The position numbers were made by a program, and so were the translations under genes. Positions 3,089 to 36,736 of a stretch of 64,000 nt of DNA are shown piece after piece; the stretch's first letter is position 1, and each line of letters starts with the position of its first letter. Below the pieces are notes generated by a model. The model was not told where the DNA came from. It did not search any database and saw nothing but the letters and a program-made list of their open reading frames with translations. This DNA comes from an uncultured Coriobacteriaceae bacterium (GTDB lineage Bacteria > Actinomycetota > Coriobacteriia > Coriobacteriales > CADBOM01). The stretch spans positions 14,354 through 78,353 of the forward strand of contig CAZLCK010000002.1 of NCBI GenBank assembly GCA_964558235.1, given 5' to 3'.

Positions 3089-4300
3089 CTAACCCAGGCA
3101 TTCCTTTGTTGAGATCAAAAACGATTCAATAATATAGCCTATTTCATCATCAGTTAACAAAGTGAATAGTGGAAGTGTGATTTCGTTCTTATACATTTCA
3201 TATGCATTTGGGTAATCCATAATAGAAAATCCAATATTTTGATATGCACTGAGCATTGGCAGCGGGCGATAGTGAACATTGCATGAGATGCCTTTCTTAG
3301 CCATTTTGACAATTATTTCGTCTCGCTGTTGTTCTGTTGCCCCTAATACTCTTGTTAGAGCAAGATGTCCACTAGAAGATCCCTCATCTGTGTAGTGAAG
3401 TGCCATGTAGATATCTGAATCTGCAAGCTCTTTTTCATATCTTTCGATGATTTCTTTTCTCCTAGCAAGCATGGATGGATAACGTTGCAATTGAGCAAGA
3501 CCAATTGATGCAGCAATATCAGTCATATTCCACTTGTAACCAAACTCTGCAATATCATATTTCCACGAGCCTGGCTCAAGCTTTTCATAGGCACTTTTGG
3601 TCTGTCCATGCAAAGAAAATGAAAAAGCACGTTTAAAAAGCTCTTCGTTATCCATGCCATTAATATTTTTCCATGCAAGAGCACCACCTTCAGCGGTTGT
3701 AAGATTTTTTACAGCATGGAAAGAAAAGGCAGTGAAATCTGCGACAGATCCAGATGGCTTTCCGTGATAGGTTGCACCCAAAGAATGTGCCCCATCAGCC
3801 AAAACAACAACTCTGCCAATAGCCTTTTGGATATCATTTTTAGCTTTAAAGAGTTCCTGCTTTGATTCTACGATAGAAAAAATCCTATCGTAATCGCACA
3901 TAATTCCACCAACATCAACTGGTATTATTGCCTTCGTATTTTCTGTGATTGCATCTTCTAGGAGTTCATAGTCCATCTGAAGAGAGTCCTCAGATAAGTC
4001 GACCAAAACTGGTTTAGCGCCAACGTGAACTATAACGCTACAAGAAGATGTATATGTATATGGAGTGGTAATAACCTCGTCACCTTCACCAATACCAAGA
4101 ATTCTTAGAGCTAGCTCAAGTGCAGAAGTTGCTGACGATAAGCAAAGTAAGTTATCTACTCCGCAGTATTGCGCTAATTGATCTTGAAACTGAATGACCT
4201 TTGGCCCAGAAGTGATCCATCCACTTTTGAGGGTATTGCAAACCTCTTTAATTTCTTGCTCAGTTATATCTGGCCTGAAAAAGGGGATATTCTTTTCCAA
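3089..4300 (-). CDS. DegT/DnrJ/EryC1/StrS-family sugar aminotransferase (PglE-like)
   Basis: 403 aa. PLP-lysine motif FSFHAVKNLTTAEGG. TTG start preceded by AGGAGG at 7 nt. Confidence 0.85.
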   Translation of the reverse strand: MEKNIPFFRPDITEQEIKEVCNTLKSGWITSGPKVIQFQDQLAQYCGVDNLLCLSSATSALELALRILGIGEGDEVITTPYTYTSSCSVIVHVGAKPVLVDLSEDSLQMDYELLEDAITENTKAIIPVDVGGIMCDYDRIFSIVESKQELFKAKNDIQKAIGRVVVLADGAHSLGATYHGKPSGSVADFTAFSFHAVKNLTTAEGGALAWKNINGMDNEELFKRAFSFSLHGQTKSAYEKLEPGSWKYDIAEFGYKWNMTDIAASIGLAQLQRYPSMLARRKEIIERYEKELADSDIYMALHYTDEGSSSGHLALTRVLGATEQQRDEIIVKMAKKGISCNVHYRPLPMLSAYQNIGFSIMDYPNAYEMYKNEITLPLFTLLTDDEIGYIIESFLISTKECLG

Positions 4301-4396
4301 GGCTAAGCCTCCTAATAAAGCTAAAAATGTTCTATGTTAAGCAGGTCTTGTGGCTAAGAATTCTGCTTCGAAGTATTAATTAAAACGAATCTAATT

Positions 4397-5170
4397 TTAA
4401 ATGTAGAGTATGAATTTCTTTTGAAGTTTCTTAAATACGTAATATCCAACTACATATGTTATTAATGCCATACCTACGCACACCAATGTTTCGGTTACGC
4501 TTGGGATAGTTGCATACAAAACAACATCGCGCATATATGTGACAAAGTGGTACATCGGATTCCACCAGATGATCTGTAGCATCCAGTCTTGCAAGATAGA
4601 TATTGGGTAAAAAAGTGGAGTTAGATATGTCCATAGAGTTATCAAAACACCCCATAGATGCAGAAAATCGTGGAAAAATGTAGCCAATGCACTAAGTAGT
4701 AAGCTCAATCCAAGAGCAAAAATAGCAGTGAGCAAGACTACAAATGGAATAAGAAACATTGTTGGGCTTGGTGGGACTTGAAAATAAATGAGAACTAAAA
4801 AGATTGCTATTAAAGAAAAGGCATAGTTAACTACGGCAAAAATTATTTTTTCAACAGGAAAGACCAATTTGTTGACCTTGATCTTTTTGATCAACGGAGC
4901 TGAGTCGATAATAGATCGCATTGCTTCGCCGACTCCATCGGCCATCATGTTAAAGAGCGTTTGTCCTAGAATAAAATATAATGGGTAGTATTCGATTTCA
5001 AAACGAAACATATAAGAAAAGACCGCCGATAAAACAATCATTGTTAAGAGTGGATTTAAAACACTCCACAAAACACCCAAAACCGAACGTCTATATTTAA
5101 GTTTGAAATCTTTAGAAACTAGGTTTTGCAATAGGTATACGCTATCTTTTAGACCTCTAATAAGATCCAT
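4397..5170 (-). CDS. ABC-2 type polysaccharide/teichoic-acid exporter permease (Wzm/TagG-like)
   Basis: Six predicted TM helices with ABC-2 permease-like sequence (YRRSVLGVLWSVLNPLL). ATG 5170 has SD GGGAG; the track start at 5191 is a TTG. Confidence 0.75.
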   Translation of the reverse strand: MDLIRGLKDSVYLLQNLVSKDFKLKYRRSVLGVLWSVLNPLLTMIVLSAVFSYMFRFEIEYYPLYFILGQTLFNMMADGVGEAMRSIIDSAPLIKKIKVNKLVFPVEKIIFAVVNYAFSLIAIFLVLIYFQVPPSPTMFLIPFVVLLTAIFALGLSLLLSALATFFHDFLHLWGVLITLWTYLTPLFYPISILQDWMLQIIWWNPMYHFVTYMRDVVLYATIPSVTETLVCVGMALITYVVGYYVFKKLQKKFILYI

Positions 5171-5366
5171 TTGCTCCCAGTCTTTCGTCAAAATAGCAAC
5201 ATAGCTATTAGCAGTTCATTTTCAATCATTAGCAATATGCTTTATCACAAGTCTATCATTATGACAGATTAATAGTTATAAGCATTAGCGTTCGTTATCA
5301 TCTTGAGAATATTTTGCATAAAATAAAGAAACCGATAAAAAATTTAGAGTTTAAGTTGGTAATAAG

Positions 5367-6515
5367 ATGATCTCAATCATATGTATTGATTGCAATATAG
5401 GCTCTCCTGATCTTTTTGATAGGGAGAGTCCTGTCACAACTAGATCGCTAAAAAGCCTTTTCTCTCAAAAAGAAGAGGTGGAAATTGTAATTGTTTGTGA
5501 GTCTGATAGTCCATATTTAAACAACCTGCAAAAATATCTAGATGAAGCTCATAAGCTAAAAGTAATTCAAGTTGATGCTGCTTCTACTTTTGGTGAGTCT
5601 ATGAGACTTGGCTATGAAGCTTCTTCGGGCGATCTAGTTACATTTGTGGACTTTAATACCACGATATCTGCTGATTTTGCAATCTTCGCTTCAAGTATTT
5701 ATAGGGAAGCTCCAACCGATATAATTTCATTTCACTTACAAATTAAAGACCTTGATACTTCTAAGTTTGTTACGTGTAGAAGATCTACTCGCTCACCTTA
5801 TGCTAAGCGAGCAAAGATCCTAAGCACAAGTGAGGTTGAATCTGAGCTTTTAGCTACAATGGGTCTTTCTGTTTGTGGGCTTGTCTTTGCAAGAAAGCTT
5901 CTAAATTCTTATGGTGCAGATTTTACTGCCAAGTCAAGCATATCTTTTGATCCATACGTCTTAGAACTCATCTTTTCAGCCCAGAAGATAGCAGATTCTA
6001 GATGGGCTTTAGTCGCTAAAGAATTCTCTTTTTCAAGGGTATTTTCTAACATAAGCGAATCAGACTTGAGCATCTTCTTAGATGAAATTGAAACTTGTTC
6101 GCAAAAGCATGAATCTGATTTAGCCGAACAATATATTAAGACCGTTACTGCTCATTGGGTCGCACAAGCTTCTATGGTGCTTTTCGATATGGCAATCGAT
6201 TATCAAAAAGGCGATTACAGCAATTTAGCGCAACTTGTCTATTCAAAAAATGCTACCATCATTCAAAATCTTCTCGGGGATGAATGGGGTTTAGATAAGA
6301 ATGGTCTGCCAGATTTATCATGCAATCATCCATATATCGCTCGCTTGCGTATGCTCGGTATGGATACCTTAGAGCTGACAAAAAGACTAACTTGTGCCCA
6401 AAATTTGTTGATGGAATCTATATATCAACAAAAACTTCTTGAGATGCAGGTCTCTAAGAACGAAATTGATGAACTTCCAGAAAAACAGAGGAAGAAGCGT
6501 AGGTTTTTTAAGTAA
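5367..6515 (+). CDS. Hypothetical protein with a degenerate GT-A (GT2-like) N-terminal domain
   Basis: The N-terminal 110 aa follow the GT2 pattern (ISIICIDCN / EVEIVIVCESDS / GDLVTFVDFNT). The acidic DxD positions read DFN and the DD of the first motif reads ES. The C-terminal ~270 aa are unrecognised. Confidence 0.4.
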   Translation: MISIICIDCNIGSPDLFDRESPVTTRSLKSLFSQKEEVEIVIVCESDSPYLNNLQKYLDEAHKLKVIQVDAASTFGESMRLGYEASSGDLVTFVDFNTTISADFAIFASSIYREAPTDIISFHLQIKDLDTSKFVTCRRSTRSPYAKRAKILSTSEVESELLATMGLSVCGLVFARKLLNSYGADFTAKSSISFDPYVLELIFSAQKIADSRWALVAKEFSFSRVFSNISESDLSIFLDEIETCSQKHESDLAEQYIKTVTAHWVAQASMVLFDMAIDYQKGDYSNLAQLVYSKNATIIQNLLGDEWGLDKNGLPDLSCNHPYIARLRMLGMDTLELTKRLTCAQNLLMESIYQQKLLEMQVSKNEIDELPEKQRKKRRFFK

Positions 6516-6575: not shown

Positions 6576-8441
6576 ATGGAATTTAAATTACAGACCAGAG
6601 TTATCCTCCTAGTTTTTTGGGATATCCTTTCAAGCTACGCTGCATATCTGCTTTCTATTATTTTAACTGGACAAGCAGGTGAGATTTTGATTTCTACCGA
6701 TATCTTATTTGATATCGGTTTACTTTCGCTTTTTAATTGCGGGATTCTCCTCATCTTTAGACTTTATAACGATCTATGGGAATACGCGTCATCTTACGAA
6801 TTGTTAAAAATTATCGGTGTTACGGCGCTCTCTACCTTTATAGGTGCCTCTGTTCTATTTTTAGTTGATCTCAGATTTCCAATTAGAGTCTATTTTGTTG
6901 CGTGGTTAATCCTGTTTATTTTTGTAGGCGCAGGTCGCTATGCATTTAGATTTTTTAGTGGTCGAAGAACTATTAATGCTAGTGCTAAAGCAAGTAGAAA
7001 GCGCACATTAGTTGTTGGTGCTGGTGAGACTGCATCTCTTACAATTAAGCGTCTAACTTCTGGTGACTACTATATGAACGGAAATCCAATTGTTGCTGTT
7101 GATGATGATCCTTCTAAGATCGGTATGCGCATTCATGGTGTTAAGGTCGCTGGAGATAGACATGCAATTCCTGATCTTGTTAAACACAATGCAATCGAAC
7201 AGATCATCATTGCAATTCCTTCGGCTAAAAGATCTGATCTAAAAGAGATTTATGACATTTGCATGTCAACCGGATGTCATCTTTTGACCTTACCTAATGT
7301 TAGAGATATCCCAATTGATGAGCTTGGAGATGTCAAGTTGCGAGATGTTAGCGTTGAGGATCTTTTGAGTAGGGAAGAGGTCATTTTAGATACGCGATCT
7401 GTTAGTGGATATATTGCTGGTAAAACCATCTTAGTTACAGGTGGTGGTGGATCTATTGGATCTGAAATCGTAAGACAGCTTTGCATAGTTAAACCAAATA
7501 AGATTGTCATTTTTGATAACTATGAGAATACTACCTATGAGCTTTTAAAAGAGATTCAAAGTCATTATGATGACGTCAAAATTGTTATTGAAATCGGATC
7601 TATTCGTGATTATCCAAGGCTAGTTGCTGCTTTTAATAAACATATGCCCCAAGTTGTATTTCACGCTGCTGCTCATAAACATGTGCCTTTGATGGAGTCT
7701 TGTCCTCAGGAGGCTATTCGCAATAACGTCTTTGGGACTATGAATGTTGCTAATGCTTCTAGGCTTCATGGCGTTGAACGCTTCATAATGATATCTACTG
7801 ATAAAGCTGTTAATCCAACTAGTGTTATGGGTGCCACTAAAAAGTTAGGTGAGATGGTTATCCAATCATTAGCGCATGACTCTCAAACTATTTTTGCTGC
7901 GGTTAGATTCGGTAATGTTTTGGGATCACATGGAAGTGTAATTCCTCTATTTAAAAGACAGATTGCAGAGGGCGGTCCGGTTACTGTTACCGATCCTGAA
8001 ATTACTCGTTACTTCATGACTATTCCTGAGGCTTCTAAGCTTGTTATCCATGCTGGAGGCCTAGCTAAAGGTGGAGAGATTTTCATTCTTGATATGGGTG
8101 AACCTGTCAAGATAGCCGACTTAGCAAAAAAACTTATCCGACTATCAGGACTTACACCGGATAAAGATATTGAGATCAAATTCATCGGACTTCGTCCTGG
8201 AGAAAAGCTCTATGAAGAGCTGATGACAGATATGGAAAAGATGCAGTCTACTTCTAAAAAAGGGATTATGGTTTCGACTGACGATCCTGTTGATATCGAT
8301 TACGTACAGAATATGCTTCGAGATTTAGGAAACGCTTTAGAGAGTAGCTCAAAGGATATAAAGCTTAAGCTTCATGAGTACATCCCAACATATAAGCCAT
8401 GCATTACAGATACAGACGATGACGAAGTGATATTTGATTAA
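6576..8441 (+). CDS. Membrane-anchored polysaccharide biosynthesis protein CapD/PglF-like (UDP-HexNAc 4,6-dehydratase)
   Basis: 621 aa with four N-terminal TM helices and two Rossmann segments (VVGAGETA; VTGGGGSIGSE). SDR-extended motifs include MGATKKLGE. Confidence 0.85.
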   Translation: MEFKLQTRVILLVFWDILSSYAAYLLSIILTGQAGEILISTDILFDIGLLSLFNCGILLIFRLYNDLWEYASSYELLKIIGVTALSTFIGASVLFLVDLRFPIRVYFVAWLILFIFVGAGRYAFRFFSGRRTINASAKASRKRTLVVGAGETASLTIKRLTSGDYYMNGNPIVAVDDDPSKIGMRIHGVKVAGDRHAIPDLVKHNAIEQIIIAIPSAKRSDLKEIYDICMSTGCHLLTLPNVRDIPIDELGDVKLRDVSVEDLLSREEVILDTRSVSGYIAGKTILVTGGGGSIGSEIVRQLCIVKPNKIVIFDNYENTTYELLKEIQSHYDDVKIVIEIGSIRDYPRLVAAFNKHMPQVVFHAAAHKHVPLMESCPQEAIRNNVFGTMNVANASRLHGVERFIMISTDKAVNPTSVMGATKKLGEMVIQSLAHDSQTIFAAVRFGNVLGSHGSVIPLFKRQIAEGGPVTVTDPEITRYFMTIPEASKLVIHAGGLAKGGEIFILDMGEPVKIADLAKKLIRLSGLTPDKDIEIKFIGLRPGEKLYEELMTDMEKMQSTSKKGIMVSTDDPVDIDYVQNMLRDLGNALESSSKDIKLKLHEYIPTYKPCITDTDDDEVIFD

Positions 8442-28888: not shown

Positions 28889-30379
28889 ATGCCTAATTCG
28901 ATTGGTTTTGATAAAGATAAGTATATCTCAATGCAGGCTGAGAGGATTCGTCAAAGAATTTCGGATTTCGGAGGAAAGCTTTATCTAGAATTTGGCGGGA
29001 AGCTTTACGACGATCATCATGCGACGAGAGTTCTACCCGGTTTTGAGCCTGATATTAAGCTCAGCATGTTAAAAAGCATGATAAATGATGTCGAGATCAT
29101 CATCGTAATTAGCGCTAGTGATATCGAGAAAAGTAAAGTTAGAGGCGATCTTGGGATTACATATGATGAAGATCTCCTGAGACTGATGGGTATATTTTTA
29201 AACCTAGGCTTTATGGTGGGATCAGTTGTAATAACGCACTATACTGGTCAAACCAATGCTCACGCTTTTCAAAAACGTCTCGAGTCTTTGGGGGTTAAGT
29301 GCTATATGCACTCTCCTATCGAAGGATATCCATATAACATTGATTTGATTGTAAGTGATGAAGGTTATGGGAAAAATCCCTATATAGAGACCAGCCGTCC
29401 GTTAGTTGTAATTACCGCACCGGGTCCTGGCAGCGGAAAGATGGCAACCTGTCTTTCGCAGCTCTACCACGAATATCGTCGTGAAAACAAGGCTGGTTAT
29501 GCAAAATTTGAGACCTTCCCTATTTGGAATTTACCACTTGATCATCCAGTAAATATCGCTTATGAAGCTGCAACCGTTGATTTGGGAGATGTAAATGCAA
29601 TCGATCCATTTCATCTAGAAGCTTATGGGGAATCTACTGTTAATTACAATCGCGACATAGAGATATTCCCAGTTCTTCGCAATATTATGGAAAAAGTTAT
29701 GGGTGGAGAGTGTCCTTATAAATCACCGACCGACATGGGTGTAAATATGGCTGGTATGGCCATTTGTAATGATGATGTAATACGAGAGGCAGCTAAACGA
29801 GAGATCGTTAGACGTTATTATTCAGTTGCTGTTGAAGCTAAACGAACTGGCATGGGTGAAGAAAGTATAGCCCGTATCGAAATCATGATGAATCGAGCAG
29901 GAGTAAATGCTAATTACTCCCCTGCTCATAGTGCGGCTTTACTTAAAGAAGAGGTCAGTGGAGGCCCCGCAGGAGCAATGGAACTACCTGACGGACGAAT
30001 AATAACTGGAAAGACTTCTGCGCTTTTAACAGCACCTTCGTCATTGTTATTAAATGCATTAAAGGCACAAGCTGGGATTGATGACGATATCTATGTAATA
30101 AGTGACGCTGCTCTTGAGCCAATCTGTCATTTAAGGACTGAACAGCTTGGCTATGTGAATCCACATTTGCAACCAATGGAGATGTTAATCGCACTCTCTA
30201 CAAGTTCTTTGACTAGCCCCTTAGCTGCTCGAGTACTTGAGCATGCTCATGAACTTCGTGGGTGTGATGCTTACTTTTCTGTAATTATCTCTCAAGAAGA
30301 TGAACAGCTTTATAAAACACTAGGCATAAACGTTTGTTGTGAACCAAAGTATGAGGGCGGATCTCCAATAGTTCTTTAA
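28889..30379 (+). CDS. UPF0371 / DUF1846 family protein
   Basis: 496 aa. Highly characteristic blocks GGKLYLEFGGKLYDDHHATRVLPGFEPD and TAPGPGSGKMATCLSQLYHE...AGYAKFETFPIWNLPLDHPVN. Confidence 0.8.
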   Translation: MPNSIGFDKDKYISMQAERIRQRISDFGGKLYLEFGGKLYDDHHATRVLPGFEPDIKLSMLKSMINDVEIIIVISASDIEKSKVRGDLGITYDEDLLRLMGIFLNLGFMVGSVVITHYTGQTNAHAFQKRLESLGVKCYMHSPIEGYPYNIDLIVSDEGYGKNPYIETSRPLVVITAPGPGSGKMATCLSQLYHEYRRENKAGYAKFETFPIWNLPLDHPVNIAYEAATVDLGDVNAIDPFHLEAYGESTVNYNRDIEIFPVLRNIMEKVMGGECPYKSPTDMGVNMAGMAICNDDVIREAAKREIVRRYYSVAVEAKRTGMGEESIARIEIMMNRAGVNANYSPAHSAALLKEEVSGGPAGAMELPDGRIITGKTSALLTAPSSLLLNALKAQAGIDDDIYVISDAALEPICHLRTEQLGYVNPHLQPMEMLIALSTSSLTSPLAARVLEHAHELRGCDAYFSVIISQEDEQLYKTLGINVCCEPKYEGGSPIVL

Positions 30380-31221
30380 CAGTTTTTACTATATTTTGAG
30401 AAATTAACCAGATCAGGTAAAGCGAGTTCAAACTTTACTCCATACCAATGGTTTGTATCTGGTTGAGTAAGCTCTATGCATTTAACTGTATAATCGGCTG
30501 CAATTCTGGCCGACTCGATGGCATTATGTCCGTTCATCATCATTCCAACAAACGATGATGCATAAACGTCTCCTGTTCCATGGCATCCCTTTGAGATAAG
30601 CCTATGCTCATAATATGAATATGCACCATTTTCAAAAACAACCACACCGGTCTTGTCTTCTCTAAACGATACTCCAGTTAAAATAACATTTTTTGCACCT
30701 AGGTCACATAGTGCATGGAGGAGTTCTAGAATGTAATTTTCATCGTAGTTCTCGAGATATTCTAGTCCAGTAAGATAAGCAGCTTCTGTGATATTTGGCA
30801 AGATATAGTCTCCAACGGCGCATAAGCGCTTCATAGCATCTACATACTCATCATCAAAGGCTGGATAGAGTCTTCCATTGTCTGCCATGGCTGGATCGAT
30901 AAATTTTGGAGCTCCAGGATTACTAAGAGTATTAAAGATGTCGATCATATAGTCGATCTGCTCTTTACTCCCTAGATACCCGGTATAAAAAGCATCAAAG
31001 GTGATATTTTCCTTTTTCCAATGCGCTGCAATATCAGGGATATCCTTAGATAGATCTCTAACAGTAAAACCAGTAAATCCGCCGGTATGTGTTGACAAAA
31101 CTGCAGAAGGGATAATGCAAGTTTCAATACCACAGGCAGATATGATCGGAAGTGCTACAGTTAAGGAGCATTGTCCAACACACGAGATATCTTGAATAGT
31201 TAATATTCTCGAGTATTTCAT
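30376..31221 (-). CDS. pdxK: Pyridoxal/pyridoxine/pyridoxamine kinase
   Basis: 281 aa ribokinase-fold PdxK/PdxY pattern (ILTIQDISCVGQCSL..., C-terminal GTGDVYASSF). Its stop overlaps the convergent UPF0371 stop in the tetranucleotide TTAA. Confidence 0.8.
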   Translation of the reverse strand: MKYSRILTIQDISCVGQCSLTVALPIISACGIETCIIPSAVLSTHTGGFTGFTVRDLSKDIPDIAAHWKKENITFDAFYTGYLGSKEQIDYMIDIFNTLSNPGAPKFIDPAMADNGRLYPAFDDEYVDAMKRLCAVGDYILPNITEAAYLTGLEYLENYDENYILELLHALCDLGAKNVILTGVSFREDKTGVVVFENGAYSYYEHRLISKGCHGTGDVYASSFVGMMMNGHNAIESARIAADYTVKCIELTQPDTNHWYGVKFELALPDLVNFSKYSKNC

Positions 31222-31381
31222 AGTAATAAAGACACCTCTTTCAAGAAATAAATGGAAAATATCCGAAAAACATTCTCTTACAACAAAAGTGTTATCCGAC
31301 CTTCTTTTATGTATTTAATTATTAATAGTCCGTATATGGAGCAGTTTTAGCTTGTTATACTTATAGAAAAAAGGAGAGAAA

Positions 31382-31450
31382 ATGGCTAAAAAGATCGTCT
31401 ATAAAAAACCTAGAATTATCAAAGTCTCTATGACAACTATGATCTCTTAA
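31382..31450 (+). CDS. Candidate RiPP precursor peptide, 22 aa (MAKKIVYKKPRIIKVSMTTMIS)
   Basis: Not in the ORF track because it is too short. ATG preceded by AAGGAGAG with a 5-nt spacer, the strongest SD in this intergenic region. A 7-bp hairpin (31452-31479) follows its stop. It sits 62 nt upstream of, and on the same strand as, the rSAM + PqqD-like genes. Confidence 0.45.
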   Translation: MAKKIVYKKPRIIKVSMTTMIS

Positions 31451-31512
31451 TATGATTTAAAAAGTTGCAAGAAAATCATTTGGACAACGATTCAGATTCA
31501 TAATCCTTAAAG

Positions 31513-32451
31513 ATGACTAATCTCATTAGTGCAGGAAAGATCAAGGGGCTAAGCAGGGCGTGTCCAGGGCCATTGCTTCACATTAACTACAATATCAGTT
31601 TTAAATGTTCTTTTAATTGTCTTCATTGCTATAGCAGACTTGAAGAAGAACATAGTTTTGTCAAAGATGAACTCAACTTAAATCAAAAGCTTAAAGTTTG
31701 TAAAAATATTATTTCTTCGGGTGTTTTTAGCGTCAATCTAGGCGGAGGAGAACCTCTAGAGTGTGAAGATATCTATCCTGTAATTGAATATCTTTCTAAA
31801 AGCGGGGTACAGGTCTCTATATGTTCTAATGGGTGGGGGCTAACAGCAGAGGTTGCTGAAAAGCTAAAACATGCTGGCTTAAAAAAAGTGCATCTATCTC
31901 TAGATGATTCGATTGAAACAAAGCACGATACGCTTCGTAATCGACAAGATAGTTTTAAACATCTTTTACAAGCAGCAAATAATTGCAGAAAAACTGGAAT
32001 AAAAATAGGGATATCTACAACTTTATATCGTGATAACTTTAACCGATTGGACGAAATTGCTGAGATTGCACACAGGCTCAATGCCACTTCGTTTGAGATT
32101 AAAGGCCTAAAACCTAAGGGAAATGCAAAATTATTTTGGGACAAAACATTAACAGACGCTCAAGAATCTTCTCTTTATAACGAGATCAAGATACTCAAAG
32201 CAAAATATACTAATAAGGGCTTGGATGTTCGCCTTGTCTATTCTCATAATTCTTTTGAAGAGATTGATGACGGATGTCCTTGCGGAAGAACAGTTTTGGC
32301 GATATTGCCAAATGGAATCGTTGCACCATGTGTGTACAGCCCACGTATTGCAGGTAATGCTTTAACAGAGTCATTAAGTGATATATGGGTTAATTCCAAA
32401 GAATTAAATGAATTTAGATCTCTTAATATTTGTGCAGGATTGGAAAGATAG
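31513..32451 (+). CDS. Radical SAM enzyme with a C-terminal auxiliary-cluster (twitch/SPASM-like) region
   Basis: CxxxCxxC = CSFNCLHC, SAM-binding GGGEPL, and C-terminal Cys set DDGCPCG-x16-PC...NIC. 312 aa. Confidence 0.85.
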   Translation: MTNLISAGKIKGLSRACPGPLLHINYNISFKCSFNCLHCYSRLEEEHSFVKDELNLNQKLKVCKNIISSGVFSVNLGGGEPLECEDIYPVIEYLSKSGVQVSICSNGWGLTAEVAEKLKHAGLKKVHLSLDDSIETKHDTLRNRQDSFKHLLQAANNCRKTGIKIGISTTLYRDNFNRLDEIAEIAHRLNATSFEIKGLKPKGNAKLFWDKTLTDAQESSLYNEIKILKAKYTNKGLDVRLVYSHNSFEEIDDGCPCGRTVLAILPNGIVAPCVYSPRIAGNALTESLSDIWVNSKELNEFRSLNICAGLER

Positions 32452-32802
32452 ATGACTAAGTATGTTTTAAGTGATAAGGCAATTGTTCAACGTCCTTATT
32501 TGAATATTTCTGGATGTACAAATATCAAGCAAGTAGCACTTCGAGCTCTTGAAGATGAGAGCATTGATCCAGATGCAACAGCTGTGGCCGTTGGTCTTGG
32601 TGAAGAAAATGAAATCTATTGTTTAAACCTTAGTGCTGCTATTGTTTTTGAAGCTCTGTTGGTTGAAAAAGATCTTTGCTGGATTATCGAAACTCTATCA
32701 TCTGTATTTGATGCAAACGAGCAAGATTTAGCAAGCGATGTAAAAGAGACTATAGCGCAACTTTTGAACTTTGAGATTCTTATTGAATTGGAAAGCGAAT
32801 AG
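32452..32802 (+). CDS. PqqD-like protein (probable RiPP recognition element)
   Basis: 116 aa. The ATG immediately abuts the rSAM TAG stop. The C-terminal 70 aa fit the PqqD pattern (IYCLNLSAAIVFEALL...IIETLSSVFDANEQDLASDVKETIAQLLNFEILIE). Confidence 0.6.
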   Translation: MTKYVLSDKAIVQRPYLNISGCTNIKQVALRALEDESIDPDATAVAVGLGEENEIYCLNLSAAIVFEALLVEKDLCWIIETLSSVFDANEQDLASDVKETIAQLLNFEILIELESE

Positions 32803-32943: not shown

Positions 32944-33984
32944 TCACCAAAGCCCAATTACATGCTGCATAGCAAGACTTACACAAGCAATCGCTATCCA
33001 ACAGGTTAATCCTAAAAGAAGTGGCTTTGCTCCGCTTTTTATAAGCTTTACTACGTCAGTTCCAAGTCCAATGGCTGCCATCGCCATAATGATTAAAAAT
33101 TTTGCAATGTTAGAAAAAGGATCAAAAAAAGAGTCATTAACTCCGATACTTGTTGCAATAGTTGTAATGATCGATGCAAAAACAAAGAAAAGGATGAACA
33201 TTGGAAAGGATTTCTTGAGGCTAAATCCTCCAACCGTAGAGCCGCCTTCGGCTTGAGCAAGTTTTCGTTCATGTGATGAGACCCACAATGCCAAAACTAA
33301 AGTGATCGGAATAATAGCCAATGTTCTTGTTAACTTGACAATAGTGGCATAATCTAGCGCATTAGAACCTGAATGCATTCCATCCCAAGCAGCAGCTGCA
33401 GCAGTAACAGAAGATGTATCATTAACGGCAGTTCCTGCAAAAAGTCCAAAGCCTTCATTAGTAAGTCCTAGTACACTACCTAAACTTGGAAAAATCAAAG
33501 CTGCAATAACATTAAATAAAAAGATAACTGAGATCGACTGAGCAACCTCTTCGTCTCTTGCCTTTATAACAGGAGCTGTTGCTGCAATTGCAGATCCACC
33601 ACAAATTGAAGAACCAACACCTATTAGTGTTGCGATTTCGCCTGGAATCTTAAGAGCTTTGCTTACCGCAAATGCAACTATCAGACTTGTGGAGATAGTT
33701 AAAAGGATTATTGGTAAAGATGTTATTCCAACTTGAGCAATCTGATTAAGATTAAGTCCAAATCCAAGTAGAATAACAGCTAATTGAAGAATCTTCTTAG
33801 ATGTAAAGCCTATCCCCTCGCCTGCTTTAGCATGATCTTTCCAAAAAATCGAGATAATCATTCCGGTAAGTATTGCAAAGACCGGACCGCCTACTACAGG
33901 AATCAAAGTGCCAATGTAATAACACGGGATCGCTATAATAAGACACACTAAAAAGCCAGGAAGAATCCTCAAAATCTTTGACAT
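32944..33984 (-). CDS. YeiH/UPF0324-family integral membrane protein (putative anion exporter)
   Basis: 346 aa, ~10 TM helices, with conserved [15 protein letters not shown] and TAVNDTSSV blocks. Confidence 0.75.
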
Positions 33985-34173: not shown

Positions 34174-35247
34174 TTGGAGAGTGTTTTGAATAAAAATATG
34201 TACAGATATTCAGAACGTTTGGCAGATAAGCTTATAGAGCACTCCACGCTTAGTGAAAATGAATTTTCTTATCTTATTTGTTATAGAACTCCTGAGATTG
34301 CATCAAAACTCGCCACCAGAGCTCTTGAAGTCAAAAAGTCAATATATGGCAACGAGATTTTTATTCGCGGACTTATTGAATTTAGTAATTTTTGTAAAAA
34401 TGATTGCCTTTATTGTGGAATTCGATCATCAAATAGAAGCTGTGAACGTTATAGGTTAGATATATCAACTATTCTTCAATGCTGTAAAAAAGGATATAAG
34501 CTTGGATTTCGTACTTTTGTATTGCAAGGCGGAGAAGATAATTGTATAGATGATAGTTTTCTTGTCGAAGTAATACAGGATATAAAAGACGAGTTCAAAG
34601 ACTGCGCAGTTACTCTTTCTATAGGCGAAAGATCGCAAAAGAGCTATAGAGCATTAAGAAAAGCTGGAGCTGATAGATATCTACTTCGTCATGAAACAGC
34701 AAGTTTTTCGCATTATAAGCTTCTCCATCCACGCAATATGTCTCAGATCAATCGAATCAATTGTCTATGTGAACTAAAGAACTTAGGATATCAAATTGGA
34801 GCAGGGTTTATGGTAGGCTCGCCTTATCAAACTCCTCAAACTTTAGCTAAAGATCTTGTTTTTATTCAAAGACTTAATCCAGATATGTGTGGAATTGGGC
34901 CATTTATCCCTCATCATGCAACTCCGCTATATAATTTCAATAAAGGAACTGTTGAGCTTACATGTTTTTTACTCTCAATTTTAAGAATTATTTGTCCTCA
35001 TATTTTGCTTCCAGCAACTACTGCGCTTGGAACAATAGATGAATTTGGGCGCGAAAAGGGCATTTTGTCAGGCGCAAATGTTGTTATGCCTAATTTAAGC
35101 CCACAAGATGTATTGGGAAAATATGAAATATATGAGAACAAGTTAGTTACTGGAACTGAAAATGCTCAAGCAATAGAAGCTCTACATAATAGATTTGCAA
35201 AGATAGGCTGTAAAATAAGTATCTCTCGTGGTGATGTTAGGAAATAA
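34174..35247 (+). CDS. hydE: [FeFe]-hydrogenase maturase HydE (radical SAM)
   Basis: IEFSNFCKNDCLYCGIRSSN (CxxxCxxC), LQGGED, GADRYLLRHETA, GAGFMVG, GIGPFIPH, LPATTALGT and GANVVMPN, all matching the HydE pattern. The start codon is uncertain (TTG 34174 or ATG 34198). Confidence 0.85.
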   Translation: MESVLNKNMYRYSERLADKLIEHSTLSENEFSYLICYRTPEIASKLATRALEVKKSIYGNEIFIRGLIEFSNFCKNDCLYCGIRSSNRSCERYRLDISTILQCCKKGYKLGFRTFVLQGGEDNCIDDSFLVEVIQDIKDEFKDCAVTLSIGERSQKSYRALRKAGADRYLLRHETASFSHYKLLHPRNMSQINRINCLCELKNLGYQIGAGFMVGSPYQTPQTLAKDLVFIQRLNPDMCGIGPFIPHHATPLYNFNKGTVELTCFLLSILRIICPHILLPATTALGTIDEFGREKGILSGANVVMPNLSPQDVLGKYEIYENKLVTGTENAQAIEALHNRFAKIGCKISISRGDVRK

Positions 35248-35290
35248 AATACATCACAGTAAAATACATTTGGAAAGAGGCACAAACTAG

Positions 35291-36736
35291 ATGTCATATA
35301 ATCTTTTGTCTGAAAATGCGGATGAGTTTATCTGTCACAATGAGATTCTAGAGACTCTAAAATATGCAGATGAACATGCTAATGATGTTGAACTTATCAA
35401 GAAGATTTTACGTAAAGCTACGCCAAAAGAAACTTCCAATGCGTATATATGTGAAGGACTAGATCATAGAGAAGCCTCTATTTTATTAGCTTGTCAAATT
35501 CCTGAAATAGTAGAAGAGATCAAAAAAATTGCAGAGAAGATCAAGCTTGCTTTTTATGGAAATAGAATTGTAATCTTTGCTCCTTTATATCTTTCCAATT
35601 ATTGCATCAATGGGTGTCTATATTGTCCATATCACAAGCAAAATTCTACAATTCCAAGAAAAAAATTAACCCAAGATGAGATTAGAAAAGAAGTTATTGC
35701 TCTACAGGATATGGGCCATAAGCGTCTAGCTATAGAGGCCGGCGAAGATCCTTTAAACAACCCTTTTGATTACATTTTAGAAAGTATAAATACAATCTAT
35801 TCGATTAAGCATAATAATGGCGCTATTAGACGTGTTAATGTAAATATTGCTGCTACGACAGTCGAAGAATATAAGATGCTACATGATGCTGGAATTGGCA
35901 CATATATTCTTTTCCAAGAAACTTACCATAAACAAAATTATTTAGAACTCCATCCATCTGGTCCTAAGCATAGCTATAACTACCATACAGAGGCAATGGA
36001 TCGTGCAATGCAAGGCGGAATCGATGACGTAGGTTTAGGTGTATTATTTGGCCTAGATAGATATAGATATGAATTCGCCGGACTTTTGATGCATGCCGAG
36101 CATCTGGAAGCTAAATTTGGAGTTGGCCCTCATACCATCAGTGTCCCAAGAGTTAAGCATGCTGATGATATCGATCCAAATGCCTTTGATAATTCCATCG
36201 ATGACGATACATTTATTAAGATTATCGCCTGCATTCGTTTAGCCGTTCCTTATACCGGAATGATTATTTCTACCAGGGAGAGCGAGTCCGTACGACAGAG
36301 AGCTCTTAGCGCGGGAATCTCGCAAATTAGCGGGGGTTCTAGAACCTCTGTTGGTGGATATACTGAACAAATACGTCCACGTGATACCGAGCAGTTTGAT
36401 GTCTCGGATCAACGCACTTTAGATGAAGTTATTTCATGGTTGATAGACAATGGACATATACCTTCCTTTTGCACAGCATGCTATAGGGCAGGACGTACGG
36501 GCGACAGGTTTATGGAATTTTGTAAAGCAGGTCAAATTTTGAACTACTGTCACCCTAACGCACTCATGACTTTGGCCGAGTATTTAGTTGATTATGCTTC
36601 TGAAGATACCTACAAAAAAGGTTTTAAAATGATTGAACATGAGTTAAATAAAATTCCATCTAAAAAAACTTTACAAATAGCATCTCAAAACATTAAAAGT
36701 ATTGCAGATGGCTCTGGAAGAGATTTTTCATTTTAA
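35291..36736 (+). CDS. hydG: [FeFe]-hydrogenase maturase HydG (tyrosine lyase, radical SAM)
   Basis: 481 aa. SNYCINGCLYCPYH (CxxxCxxC) and C-terminal auxiliary-cluster motif CTACYRAGRTGDRFMEFC. SD AAAGAGG. Confidence 0.85.
   Translation: MSYNLLSENADEFICHNEILETLKYADEHANDVELIKKILRKATPKETSNAYICEGLDHREASILLACQIPEIVEEIKKIAEKIKLAFYGNRIVIFAPLYLSNYCINGCLYCPYHKQNSTIPRKKLTQDEIRKEVIALQDMGHKRLAIEAGEDPLNNPFDYILESINTIYSIKHNNGAIRRVNVNIAATTVEEYKMLHDAGIGTYILFQETYHKQNYLELHPSGPKHSYNYHTEAMDRAMQGGIDDVGLGVLFGLDRYRYEFAGLLMHAEHLEAKFGVGPHTISVPRVKHADDIDPNAFDNSIDDDTFIKIIACIRLAVPYTGMIISTRESESVRQRALSAGISQISGGSRTSVGGYTEQIRPRDTEQFDVSDQRTLDEVISWLIDNGHIPSFCTACYRAGRTGDRFMEFCKAGQILNYCHPNALMTLAEYLVDYASEDTYKKGFKMIEHELNKIPSKKTLQIASQNIKSIADGSGRDFSF

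Follow-up and report, generated by a model that had tools for sequence, protein, structure and literature searches.

A three-gene operon of an uncultured Coriobacteriaceae bacterium predicted to encode a new family of radical SAM-modified ribosomal peptides

A 64,000-nucleotide stretch of DNA from an uncultured Coriobacteriaceae bacterium (contig CAZLCK010000002.1; hereafter the window, in whose numbering positions are given) carries, at 31382–32802, three genes encoding a 22-residue peptide, a radical S-adenosylmethionine (rSAM) enzyme and a discrete PqqD-type protein, the latter a predicted recognition element (RRE) for peptides made on ribosomes and then modified post-translationally (RiPPs). 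As judged from sequence comparison, these genes probably form an operon for a new family of rSAM-modified ribosomal peptides. The cassette had been picked out as a likely peptide maturation system in an initial annotation of the same DNA; its coordinates, its sequences and the abutting TAG and ATG codons of the last two genes are as described there, and the conservation of the small open reading frame (ORF), the profile of the RRE and the maturase-like features of the enzyme argue for that interpretation. The family would be a new one within the known scheme of peptide, PqqD-type RRE and rSAM enzyme; to our knowledge, pyrroloquinoline quinone (PQQ) and mycofactocin are the two known systems that combine a short peptide, an rSAM enzyme with a SPASM domain and a discrete PqqD-type chaperone. 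No description of the peptide or enzyme family was found in the literature searched, in which coverage of subscription journals was incomplete.

Among the main sources of new enzymatic chemistry are the peptide natural products that rSAM enzymes make, and almost all characterized cases that we know of act on cysteine, aromatic or acidic residues. The proposed core of the new family, a C-terminal tripeptide, has none of these. With a 22-mer and two small proteins, the system is also very compact and lends itself to experiment, and the fixed spacing between docking site and C-terminus provides a clear and testable rule for substrate positioning. The cassette comprises the following features (source of each assignment in parentheses):

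31371–31378, + strand: Shine-Dalgarno sequence of the precursor gene, AAGGAGAG (read directly from the sequence)
31382–31450, + strand: precursor peptide gene, 22 aa, MAKKIVYKKPRIIKVSMTTMIS (ORF listing)
31400–31426, + strand: leader with putative RRE-docking motif, Y7-K-K-P10-R-I12-I-K-V15 (family column counts)
31439–31447, + strand: proposed core, C-terminal tripeptide M20-I21-S22 (family conservation)
31452–31479, + strand: 7-bp AT-rich inverted repeat 3′ of the precursor stop, probably non-functional (shuffles, terminator scan)
31513–32451, + strand: rSAM enzyme, 312 aa, with truncated SPASM (twitch-like) C-terminal domain (Pfam)
31606–31629, + strand: CX3CX2C (C32, C36, C39), motif for the radical SAM [4Fe-4S] cluster (family alignment)
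32275–32433, + strand: auxiliary-cluster region, C255-P-C257-G ... G268-x4-C273 ... C307 (family alignment)
32452–32802, + strand: discrete PqqD-type RRE, 116 aa (Pfam, marginal; family profile)

The precursor ORF runs from an ATG at 31382 to a TAA at 31448–31450, with GGAG 5 nt 5′ of the start codon, and the TAG of the rSAM gene (32449–32451) immediately abuts the ATG of the RRE gene (32452). Genes on the opposite strand lie on both sides, for a pyridoxamine kinase upstream (30376–31221) and a YeiH-type transporter downstream (32944–33984, − strand), so that the three genes constitute a compact operon. The window copy is a minimal form, with no tailoring, export or immunity gene in the cassette.

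The evidence for a peptide family comes from relatives of the enzyme. Besides the window enzyme itself, a word-indexed protein collection holds about 25 clear rSAM homologues, all metagenomic and 32–46% identical to it, and DNA around homologues was obtained by exact-sequence look-ups, a scan of species-representative genomes and a scan of metagenome contigs. In all, 18 peptides of the same design, adjoining rSAM homologues, came from the window and about 17 diverged loci (designated by L numbers). The host loci span 28–66% GC, with Coriobacteriales and Clostridiaceae metagenome-assembled genomes among them, and their rSAM proteins are 32–57% identical to one another, with the exception of the L017/L018 pair (74%). 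The peptides are as follows:

Window: MAKKIVYKKPRIIKVSMTTMIS
L001: MRKLKYAKPRIRLLTLITMTA
L002: MAKYNEPKVMKCSEPVMNA
L006: MSKLPYSSPTIRELPPVPMSA
L007: MKDKIEYIAPEIKEVTLIGMAS
L017: MIDFVEPTIEEIEDVAMTA
L018, two copies: MISFVEPMINEIMDVAMTS, MISFVEPMINEIMDIAMQA
L020: MKKFQYASPTIKLVKSGAMTA
L021: MQKKKYVAPAMKAMAELAATS
L025: MNKLPYTEPTIIELPVVGLAS
L033: MDKLPYEEPTITELPDIPMSA
L038: MKKKLRYVKPQIRLIVLSTMAS
L039: MKKLKYSKPRIIKVVLSHLIS
L040: MSKIPYDPPVITEIPITSLSA

Looser variants are found in L035 and L008, and one of the 18 (L032) is the tail of a protein and not a free peptide. All 18 follow the design [Y/F]xxPx[I/V/M/L]xx[hydrophobic] and have Ala or Ser as the last residue; 16 of them have exactly 12 residues after the Pro, and among these Pro+10 is occupied by Met in 11, by Leu in 4 and by Ala in 1. 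Column counts on the first 13 peptides of the 12-residue type gave Pro in 13/13, Tyr or Phe in 13/13 and Ile, Val, Met or Leu at +2 in 13/13; the three found later were added to the motif counts by reading, by hand. A regular expression for the family matched 14 of the 4,782 small ORFs in 594 kb (window and related loci, both strands), every one of them inside an rSAM gene cluster, and 3 of 24,000 shuffled upstream regions; the ORF at 31382 is the single match on either strand of the window. The small ORF thus held up as a gene where its conservation was examined, since frame, length and C-terminus are kept beside diverged orthologues across the 18 peptides. It was uncalled in the contigs whose gene calls were inspected; gene callers miss such genes of 19–22 codons. 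The precursor also fits no known class, as had been suspected: no NCBIfam or Pfam family matched the peptides, Cys is absent from the window peptide and from 15 of the 17 others, and the window peptide has neither Trp nor a Glu–Tyr core.

Some members depart from the simplest arrangement. L018 (2899–3009 and 3178–3237), and likewise L019, has tandem precursors with identical leaders and the ends AMTS and AMQA; tandem precursor copies are typical of multi-precursor RiPP clusters. The L039 peptide (MKKLKYSKPRIIKVVLSHLIS; locus positions 538–750) has the heptapeptide KPRIIKV and an x-I-S end in common with the window peptide; about 840 nt, with a small HMA-like gene among them, separate it from the rSAM gene downstream. 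The locus has 63% GC, and its rSAM protein is 42% identical to that of the window. The precursor of L008 is longer (64 aa) and ends in SSCTTA. No free-standing precursor was found in the covered DNA of L022 and L036, whose short contigs break off close to the cassette.

The conserved part of the peptide points to how it may be recognized. Discrete PqqD-type RREs bind the leaders of lasso peptides through the motif [Y/W]xxPx[L/V/I/A/F/Y], which PqqA also carries (PMC13381572; PMC12710340). The window peptide conforms to this definition (PMC13381572) with Y7-K-K-P10-R-I12, and the docking motif is present in all 18 family members, with Phe for Tyr in three. Because YxxPxI is the published RRE-bound leader motif, Tyr7 is read as a putative docking residue and not as a substrate; the initial annotation had listed this Tyr, in its Y-K-K context, as a candidate for modification, and that suggestion is given up here, the residue being the first of the YxxPx[I/V/L] motif and replaceable by Phe. 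Its other candidate region, a Ser/Thr/Met-rich tail, was well placed in that the C-terminal end probably holds the core; what is conserved there is merely [M/L]-x-[A/S], not the Ser/Thr/Met-rich composition. We accordingly take the core to be the C-terminal M-I-S, within which the chemistry would occur.

A register in common with PQQ biosynthesis narrows the likely site further. Two PqqA sequences that pass TIGR02107 (39.9 and 44.8 bits, cut-off 20) both have the cross-linked Glu at Pro+10, the position occupied by Met or Leu in the new family (Met20 in the window). The residue of PqqA attacked by PqqE is Glu16 in M. extorquens (PMC10906245). By analogy, this Pro+10 register would be the best indication at hand of where hydrogen is abstracted. 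Neither TIGR02107 nor any other model matched the new peptides.

The 312-residue enzyme has the motifs CSFNCLHC, GGGEP and C255-P-C257-G...P-C273...C307, and matches Pfam Radical_SAM (PF04055, 72.6 bits, 5.4e-20, cut-off 29.5) and SPASM (PF13186, 37.7 bits, 2.5e-9, cut-off 21.5). Across 22 family members C32, C36 and C39 never vary, and the invariant C-terminal cysteines are limited to C255, C257, C273 and C307. In PqqE and SkfB, the residues aligned with C255 and C273 are the first two cysteines of the SPASM motif (CX12GX4C); the CX2CX5CX3C block is absent, and with it the full seven-cysteine SPASM motif for two auxiliary clusters. Since this block is missing, the enzyme is predicted to hold one auxiliary cluster, and "twitch/SPASM-like," the description first given to it, is apt for a protein that keeps the first half of the SPASM motif and lacks the second. 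No NCBIfam model scored near its cut-off:

GeoRSP_rSAM (TIGR04303), the highest-scoring model: 151.3 bits, cut-off 400
NirJ2: 139 bits, cut-off 500
AhbD: 133 bits, cut-off 500
MftC (TIGR03962): 112.4 bits, cut-off 265
PqqE: 111.6 bits, cut-off 381
skfB: 79 bits, cut-off 300

The StsB and SCIFF-type models were also below cut-off. Against solved structures, a profile of 22 rSAM family members matched SkfB (2.9e-33) and PqqE (1e-25) over the full length, followed by BlsE, SuiB, MoaA and CteB. An AlphaFold (AF2) model built on the family alignment reached a predicted local distance difference test score (pLDDT) of 90.4, and its top three distinct PDB entries by Foldseek were SkfB (template-modeling score, TM, 0.73), SuiB and PqqE, all of them peptide maturases. 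By profile and by fold these are the closest solved relatives, which argues for placing the enzyme, as first supposed, with the peptide maturases and not with the non-peptide enzymes. Pfam found no cobalamin-binding domain (matches above noise were limited to Radical_SAM, SPASM and Fer4_12, and the rSAM core begins at residue 26), and methylation, formerly among the candidate chemistries, is therefore unlikely. A profile search of 1.84 billion representatives gave a smooth decay of scores without a clean family boundary, and about 20 of 146 newly returned representatives (50% identity) carried the GCPCG signature; the family is small but real.

Over its full length, the 116-residue protein can be aligned with those encoded next after the rSAM gene in other loci. 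Homologues score 29–40 bits on PqqD, several passing the Pfam cut-off at 32–40 bits, and a profile of eight members, the window protein included, matches TbiB1 (5v1u, 1.1e-6) and TfuB1 (6jx3, 1.2e-6) as well as two "PqqD family chaperones," 9x90 (~1e-6) and 9x8z. With its family profile matching solved lasso RREs and its homologues passing the Pfam cut-off, the protein is a predicted PqqD-type RRE in agreement with the initial annotation, its own Pfam score being marginal (23.1 of the 23.4 bits required). In every family locus a local profile search placed an RRE homologue directly after the rSAM gene or fused to it. Fusions, of about 400–420 residues, occur in L008 (5944–7200; 418 aa, Radical_SAM + SPASM + PqqD) and in four library representatives (P0033, P0038, P0054, and P0061), and they would tie the two functions together. 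L008 has, in addition, a second RRE-like ORF upstream (5313–5642).

From these features we infer binding of the peptide by the RRE, a site of attack and a set of outcomes. The 22-residue peptide would be translated from its good Shine-Dalgarno sequence, and its N-terminal two thirds, with YxxPxIxxV, would be bound by the RRE in the manner of lasso-peptide and PQQ pathways. The RRE would then present the peptide to the SkfB/PqqE-like enzyme, which has one radical SAM cluster and the cysteines for a single auxiliary cluster. The 12-residue spacing from Pro to C-terminus would serve as a ruler that places the [M/L]-x-[A/S] tripeptide in the active site, where a 5′-deoxyadenosyl radical would abstract a hydrogen atom; the auxiliary cluster would take or return an electron and so complete the redox step. 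The analogy with PqqA leads us to favor Met20 (Pro+10) tentatively as the site of abstraction, and the invariant small last residue is a possible, less probable alternative. Because the core is devoid of Cys, Trp and Tyr, thioether, cyclophane and Lys–Trp chemistries are excluded, and because Pro+10 is Leu in four relatives and Ala in one, sulfur-specific chemistry cannot be general. Possible outcomes are epimerization of an aliphatic residue (0 Da), by analogy with YydG-type enzymes; a short C–C or C–O crosslink within the tripeptide (−2 Da); desaturation (−2 Da) or hydroxylation; and oxidative removal of the small terminal residue, which would explain an end made up of Ala or Ser only. A more ambitious version would have an undescribed rSAM reaction act on the aliphatic, Cys- and aromatic-free [M/L]-x-[A/S] at the end of a 12-residue ruler from the YxxP site, in a module reused three ways, on free 19–22-mers such as that of the window, as the first step toward antimetabolites directed at threonyl-tRNA synthetase (ThrRS) in clusters that also have extra ThrRS, aminotransferase and carbamoyltransferase genes, and on the tail of an aldehyde oxidoreductase of about 700 residues; taken as a whole, this is speculative and improbable.

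Several observations weigh against the interpretation of the cassette as a peptide maturation system with this chemistry. The residue at Pro+10 is not uniform (Leu in four relatives and Ala in one), and the core is invariant only in its small last residue, leaving the site of attack weakly constrained. The regular expression was derived post hoc from the same data to which it was applied, so that its significance is somewhat overstated, although its specificity for the rSAM gene clusters is clear. The window RRE itself falls marginally short on Pfam PqqD (PF05402, 23.1 bits, cut-off 23.4), a word-indexed homologue search with it returned only the query, and its single-sequence AlphaFold model (pLDDT 46.6) is unusable. 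The highest NCBIfam scores of the enzyme include the non-peptide SPASM enzymes NirJ2 and AhbD beside MftC and PqqE. Finally, no recognizable Shine-Dalgarno sequence precedes the ATG at which the rSAM gene is annotated to start (−0.1 kcal/mol; 31488–31515).

Duplex energies with the anti-Shine-Dalgarno sequence are −9.3 kcal/mol for the precursor gene, −0.1 for the rSAM gene and −4.9 for the PqqD-like gene. The precursor signal, at first taken for the strongest of the region, is the best in the operon; 3 of 13 neighboring genes equal or exceed it. Compared with most homologues, the rSAM protein is longer at its N-terminus by as many as about 17 residues, and its true start, or the mode of its translation after the peptide, is uncertain.

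Comparison with characterized systems places the cassette close to several and inside none of them. PQQ biosynthesis (PqqA, PqqD, and PqqE), too, unites a peptide of 22–29 residues with a discrete chaperone of the PqqD type and an rSAM enzyme that has a SPASM-type domain; the leader motif is [W/Y]xxPx[F/V/I]xx[L/I], the attacked Glu stands at Pro+10 where the new family has Met or Leu, and PqqE is the third distinct structural match of the window enzyme. However, the new peptide lacks the Glu...Tyr pair (PqqA core Glu-x3-Tyr) and ends two residues past +10, the window proteins are under the cut-offs for PqqA, PqqE (111.6 of 381 bits) and PqqD (18.8 of 46 bits), the enzyme lacks the CX2CX5CX3C half, and the operon has neither PqqB nor PqqC. 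Mycofactocin biosynthesis (MftA, MftB, and MftC) likewise brings a short peptide together with a separate RRE of the PqqD type and an rSAM/SPASM enzyme, and the chemistry is at the extreme C-terminus, as is proposed here. MftC decarboxylates and cross-links a C-terminal Val-Tyr, whereas the window peptide ends in M-I-S and not in Gly-Val-Tyr; the MftC score is 112.4 of 265 bits, and MftD/E/F partners are absent. SkfB, among the maturases of sactipeptides and ranthipeptides, is the best solved match (2.9e-33; TM 0.73) and also has a shortened, one-cluster auxiliary domain of the "twitch" type. It differs in its substrate, since the window precursor is free of Cys and allows no thioether (skfB model, 79 of 300 bits), and in that the RRE of the new family is a separate protein after the enzyme and not an N-terminal domain.

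The RRE and its leader motif are most similar to those of two further peptide classes. The lasso B1 proteins TbiB1 and TfuB1 are discrete PqqD-type RREs, the best solved matches of the RRE family profile, and act on leaders with YxxPx[L/V/I] (PMC13381572); the cassette nevertheless has an rSAM enzyme as partner, with neither a B2 protease nor an asparagine-synthetase-like lasso cyclase beside it. In fosfazinomycin biosynthesis, FzmZ is a scaffold peptide of 21/22 residues with an N-terminal YxxP motif that had been overlooked by ORF callers (bioRxiv 2026, PMC13622209). Its C-terminal residues are modified, as those of the new family would be, no dedicated protease is involved, and discrete RREs and major facilitator superfamily (MFS) transporters lie in the neighborhood; on the other hand, asparagine-synthetase-like enzymes, kinases and a nucleotidyltransferase take the place of the rSAM enzyme, and the C-terminus is Val-Arg (PMC13622209). 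The uncharacterized GeoRSP system (TIGR04303) pairs an rSAM/SPASM enzyme with a PqqD-family protein and gives the top model, at 151.3 of the 400 bits required; the Geobacter relative (L009) is 30–36% identical and has its PqqD-like ORF upstream of the rSAM gene. No matching peptide was seen in that locus, and no relevant GeoRSP paper was found in the literature searched. The LPP family (PMC13381572), whose leader motif is the same, was also considered and was set aside because it works with kinase and signal-peptidase machinery on precursors of 35–200 aa.

What the modified peptide is for is a separate matter, on which the gene neighborhoods of relatives appear to be split between an exported antimetabolite and an enzyme-associated or cofactor-like role. 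The initial annotation had argued from the lack of an adjacent protease, exporter or immunity gene to an intracellular, cofactor-like product. That argument is weakened by the MFS transporters and ThrRS genes of relatives (five loci each) and by the fosfazinomycin precedent, and the absence of a protease says little because the YxxP peptide of fosfazinomycin needs none in its cluster (PMC13622209); contexts with short-chain dehydrogenases/reductases (SDR) and an aldehyde:ferredoxin oxidoreductase (AFOR) do fit such a product.

According to the first of two readings of the product, which is plausible if unlikely, the peptide is an exported antimetabolite or small bioactive peptide whose end is released by general peptidases; in relatives, further tailoring would turn it into a compound directed at an aminoacyl-tRNA synthetase, with an extra ThrRS gene for self-resistance, and the window would hold the untailored form. 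MFS transporters adjoin the cassette in L001, L002-4, L007, L032 and L033, and ThrRS genes in L017, L018, L020, L021 and L036. The ThrRS proteins of L017, L018, L020 and one copy of L021 pass the TIGR00418 cut-off; those of L017 and L018 are full length, those of L020 and L021 (two copies in the latter) are N-terminally truncated, and the contig of L036 ends in a C-terminal ThrRS-like fragment. The order rSAM, RRE, DegT aminotransferase, NodU-type (NodU/CmcH-type) carbamoyltransferase is kept in L017, L021 and L036, an aminotransferase precedes the contig end in L018, and a second, MoaA-like rSAM enzyme follows in L017 and L021 (extended clusters: L017, 2807–10074; L018, 297–5768; L021, 75–10178; L036, 3–4683). 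The rSAM proteins of the ThrRS-linked loci are merely 41–51% identical (L017/L018, 74%), so that the linkage does not reflect recent synteny. Wherever one of these loci has a precursor, Thr is also the penultimate residue of one or more of its precursors. Fosfazinomycin biosynthesis offers a precedent, in which a Trojan-horse-type compound takes up the C-terminal end of a YxxP peptide of 21/22 residues and the cluster has no protease (PMC13622209). However, the full-length ThrRS of L017 and L018 could be the housekeeping gene, and L001 has a penultimate Thr, yet no ThrRS in the DNA covered. Within the 64-kb window there is no homologue of these MFS, ThrRS, carbamoyltransferase or AFOR kinds, and the sole DegT-like match (3431–4189) lies about 27 kb from the cassette. 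Were the antimetabolite interpretation right, spare ThrRS genes may guard the pathways into which this module feeds.

The second reading, distinctly unlikely on present evidence, has the peptide give rise to an intracellular redox cofactor or enzyme-bound prosthetic group that serves particular oxidoreductases, as PQQ and mycofactocin do. The architecture equals that of these two pathways, PqqE and MftC are among the better NCBIfam matches, and the leader motif and the Pro+10 register are common with PqqA. The window cassette has no exporter and stands among anaerobic redox genes (HydE, HydG, and a reductase of the old yellow enzyme type), with a DUF1846 gene as another neighbor. SDR dehydrogenases, with which mycofactocin is likewise associated, adjoin the cassette in L006 (2151–3134), L033 (213–1028 and 4215–4973) and L040 (3–1037). 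In L032, a 721-residue AFOR (3839–6004) directly upstream of the rSAM gene takes the place of a free peptide and ends in ...KPSYQAPVLYDIPGGVLGA; a second tailed AFOR, P0182, ends in ...GYEPPEAREVSAGSMAS. Both tails hold a whole precursor sequence, with the full YxxP motif and 12 residues after the Pro, and ten related oxidoreductases stop before it. On the opposing side, Met, Leu, Ala and Ser would be poor precursors for a cofactor in a core that lacks Tyr, Trp, Glu and any other side chain of obvious redox activity; the operon has no follow-up enzymes of the PqqB/C or MftD/E/F type, there is no AFOR in the window, and the exporters and ThrRS genes of other relatives point elsewhere. Should the tail be a substrate, the module may decorate the end of a large tungsten/molybdenum-type oxidoreductase, a true post-translational modification of a protein; either this outcome or the antimetabolite one would widen the presumed scope of pairs of rSAM enzyme and chaperone.

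That the small ORF is incidental, and the rSAM/PqqD pair acts instead on a protein C-terminus elsewhere or on a non-peptide substrate (a tetrapyrrole, as with NirJ/AhbD, or that of GeoRSP), would agree with the best NCBIfam scores (GeoRSP_rSAM, NirJ2, and AhbD), with the missing free-standing precursors of L022 and L036 and with the protein tail of L032, but is very improbable: those scores are far under their cut-offs (151/400, 139/500, and 133/500), the contigs of L022 and L036 are short and cut near the cassette, the GeoRSP-like Geobacter locus differs in gene order and is only 30–36% identical, and the ORF carries the exact motif bound by discrete PqqD-type RREs, with motif, length and C-terminus conserved across very diverged loci and found nowhere else in 594 kb.

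Around the cassette, few further elements were detected. An inverted repeat, ATGATTT (31452–31458) with AAATCAT (31473–31479), does follow the precursor stop as first noted, and the terminator-like character ascribed to it is not borne out: the region folds at −6.4 kcal/mol against a shuffle mean of −8.7 (z = +0.91; 170 of 200 shuffles fold as well or better), and the terminator scan made no call there. The hairpin was therefore rejected as a functional element, its stability being at the level of chance. Rfam gave no match in the window at gathering thresholds and none at E ≤ 1 in 31150–31560, so that no riboswitch or leader RNA is indicated by it, and promoter and terminator scans were at or below shuffle expectation.

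The YeiH-family putative sulfate-export protein encoded convergently with the cassette, 141 bp from the RRE stop, is the sole membrane protein nearby; it adjoins the cassette in no relative, and a link between the two is doubtful. The HydE and HydG genes (34174–36736, + strand; 1.4 kb downstream), both of which encode rSAM enzymes, were considered as members of the cluster and rejected because their products match equivalog models of [FeFe]-hydrogenase H-cluster maturases above cut-off (517 and 862 bits, respectively) and because an opposite-strand gene intervenes. Their presence marks the host as an anaerobe.

Among the relatives, the SDR-bearing loci (54–66% GC; L006 is labeled Coriobacteriales) also have PucR- or LysR-type regulators adjoining. 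The AFOR tail of L032, which can also be written ...SYQAPVLYDIPGGVLGA, lies beyond the end of the Pfam domain. In L002 an SAM synthetase and an MFS transporter (3344–5694, − strand) are divergent from the cassette, and a 62-residue ORF with no Pfam match on record (6893–7081) separates the rSAM and RRE genes. The extended cluster of L020 (40–8613) is of another kind, encoding in order the truncated ThrRS, the precursor (1132–1197), a NifB-like rSAM enzyme, a NifE/N-like protein, a NifH/CfbC-like ATPase, a glycosyltransferase-like protein, the family rSAM enzyme, the RRE, a methyltransferase and a transglutaminase-like/TPR protein.

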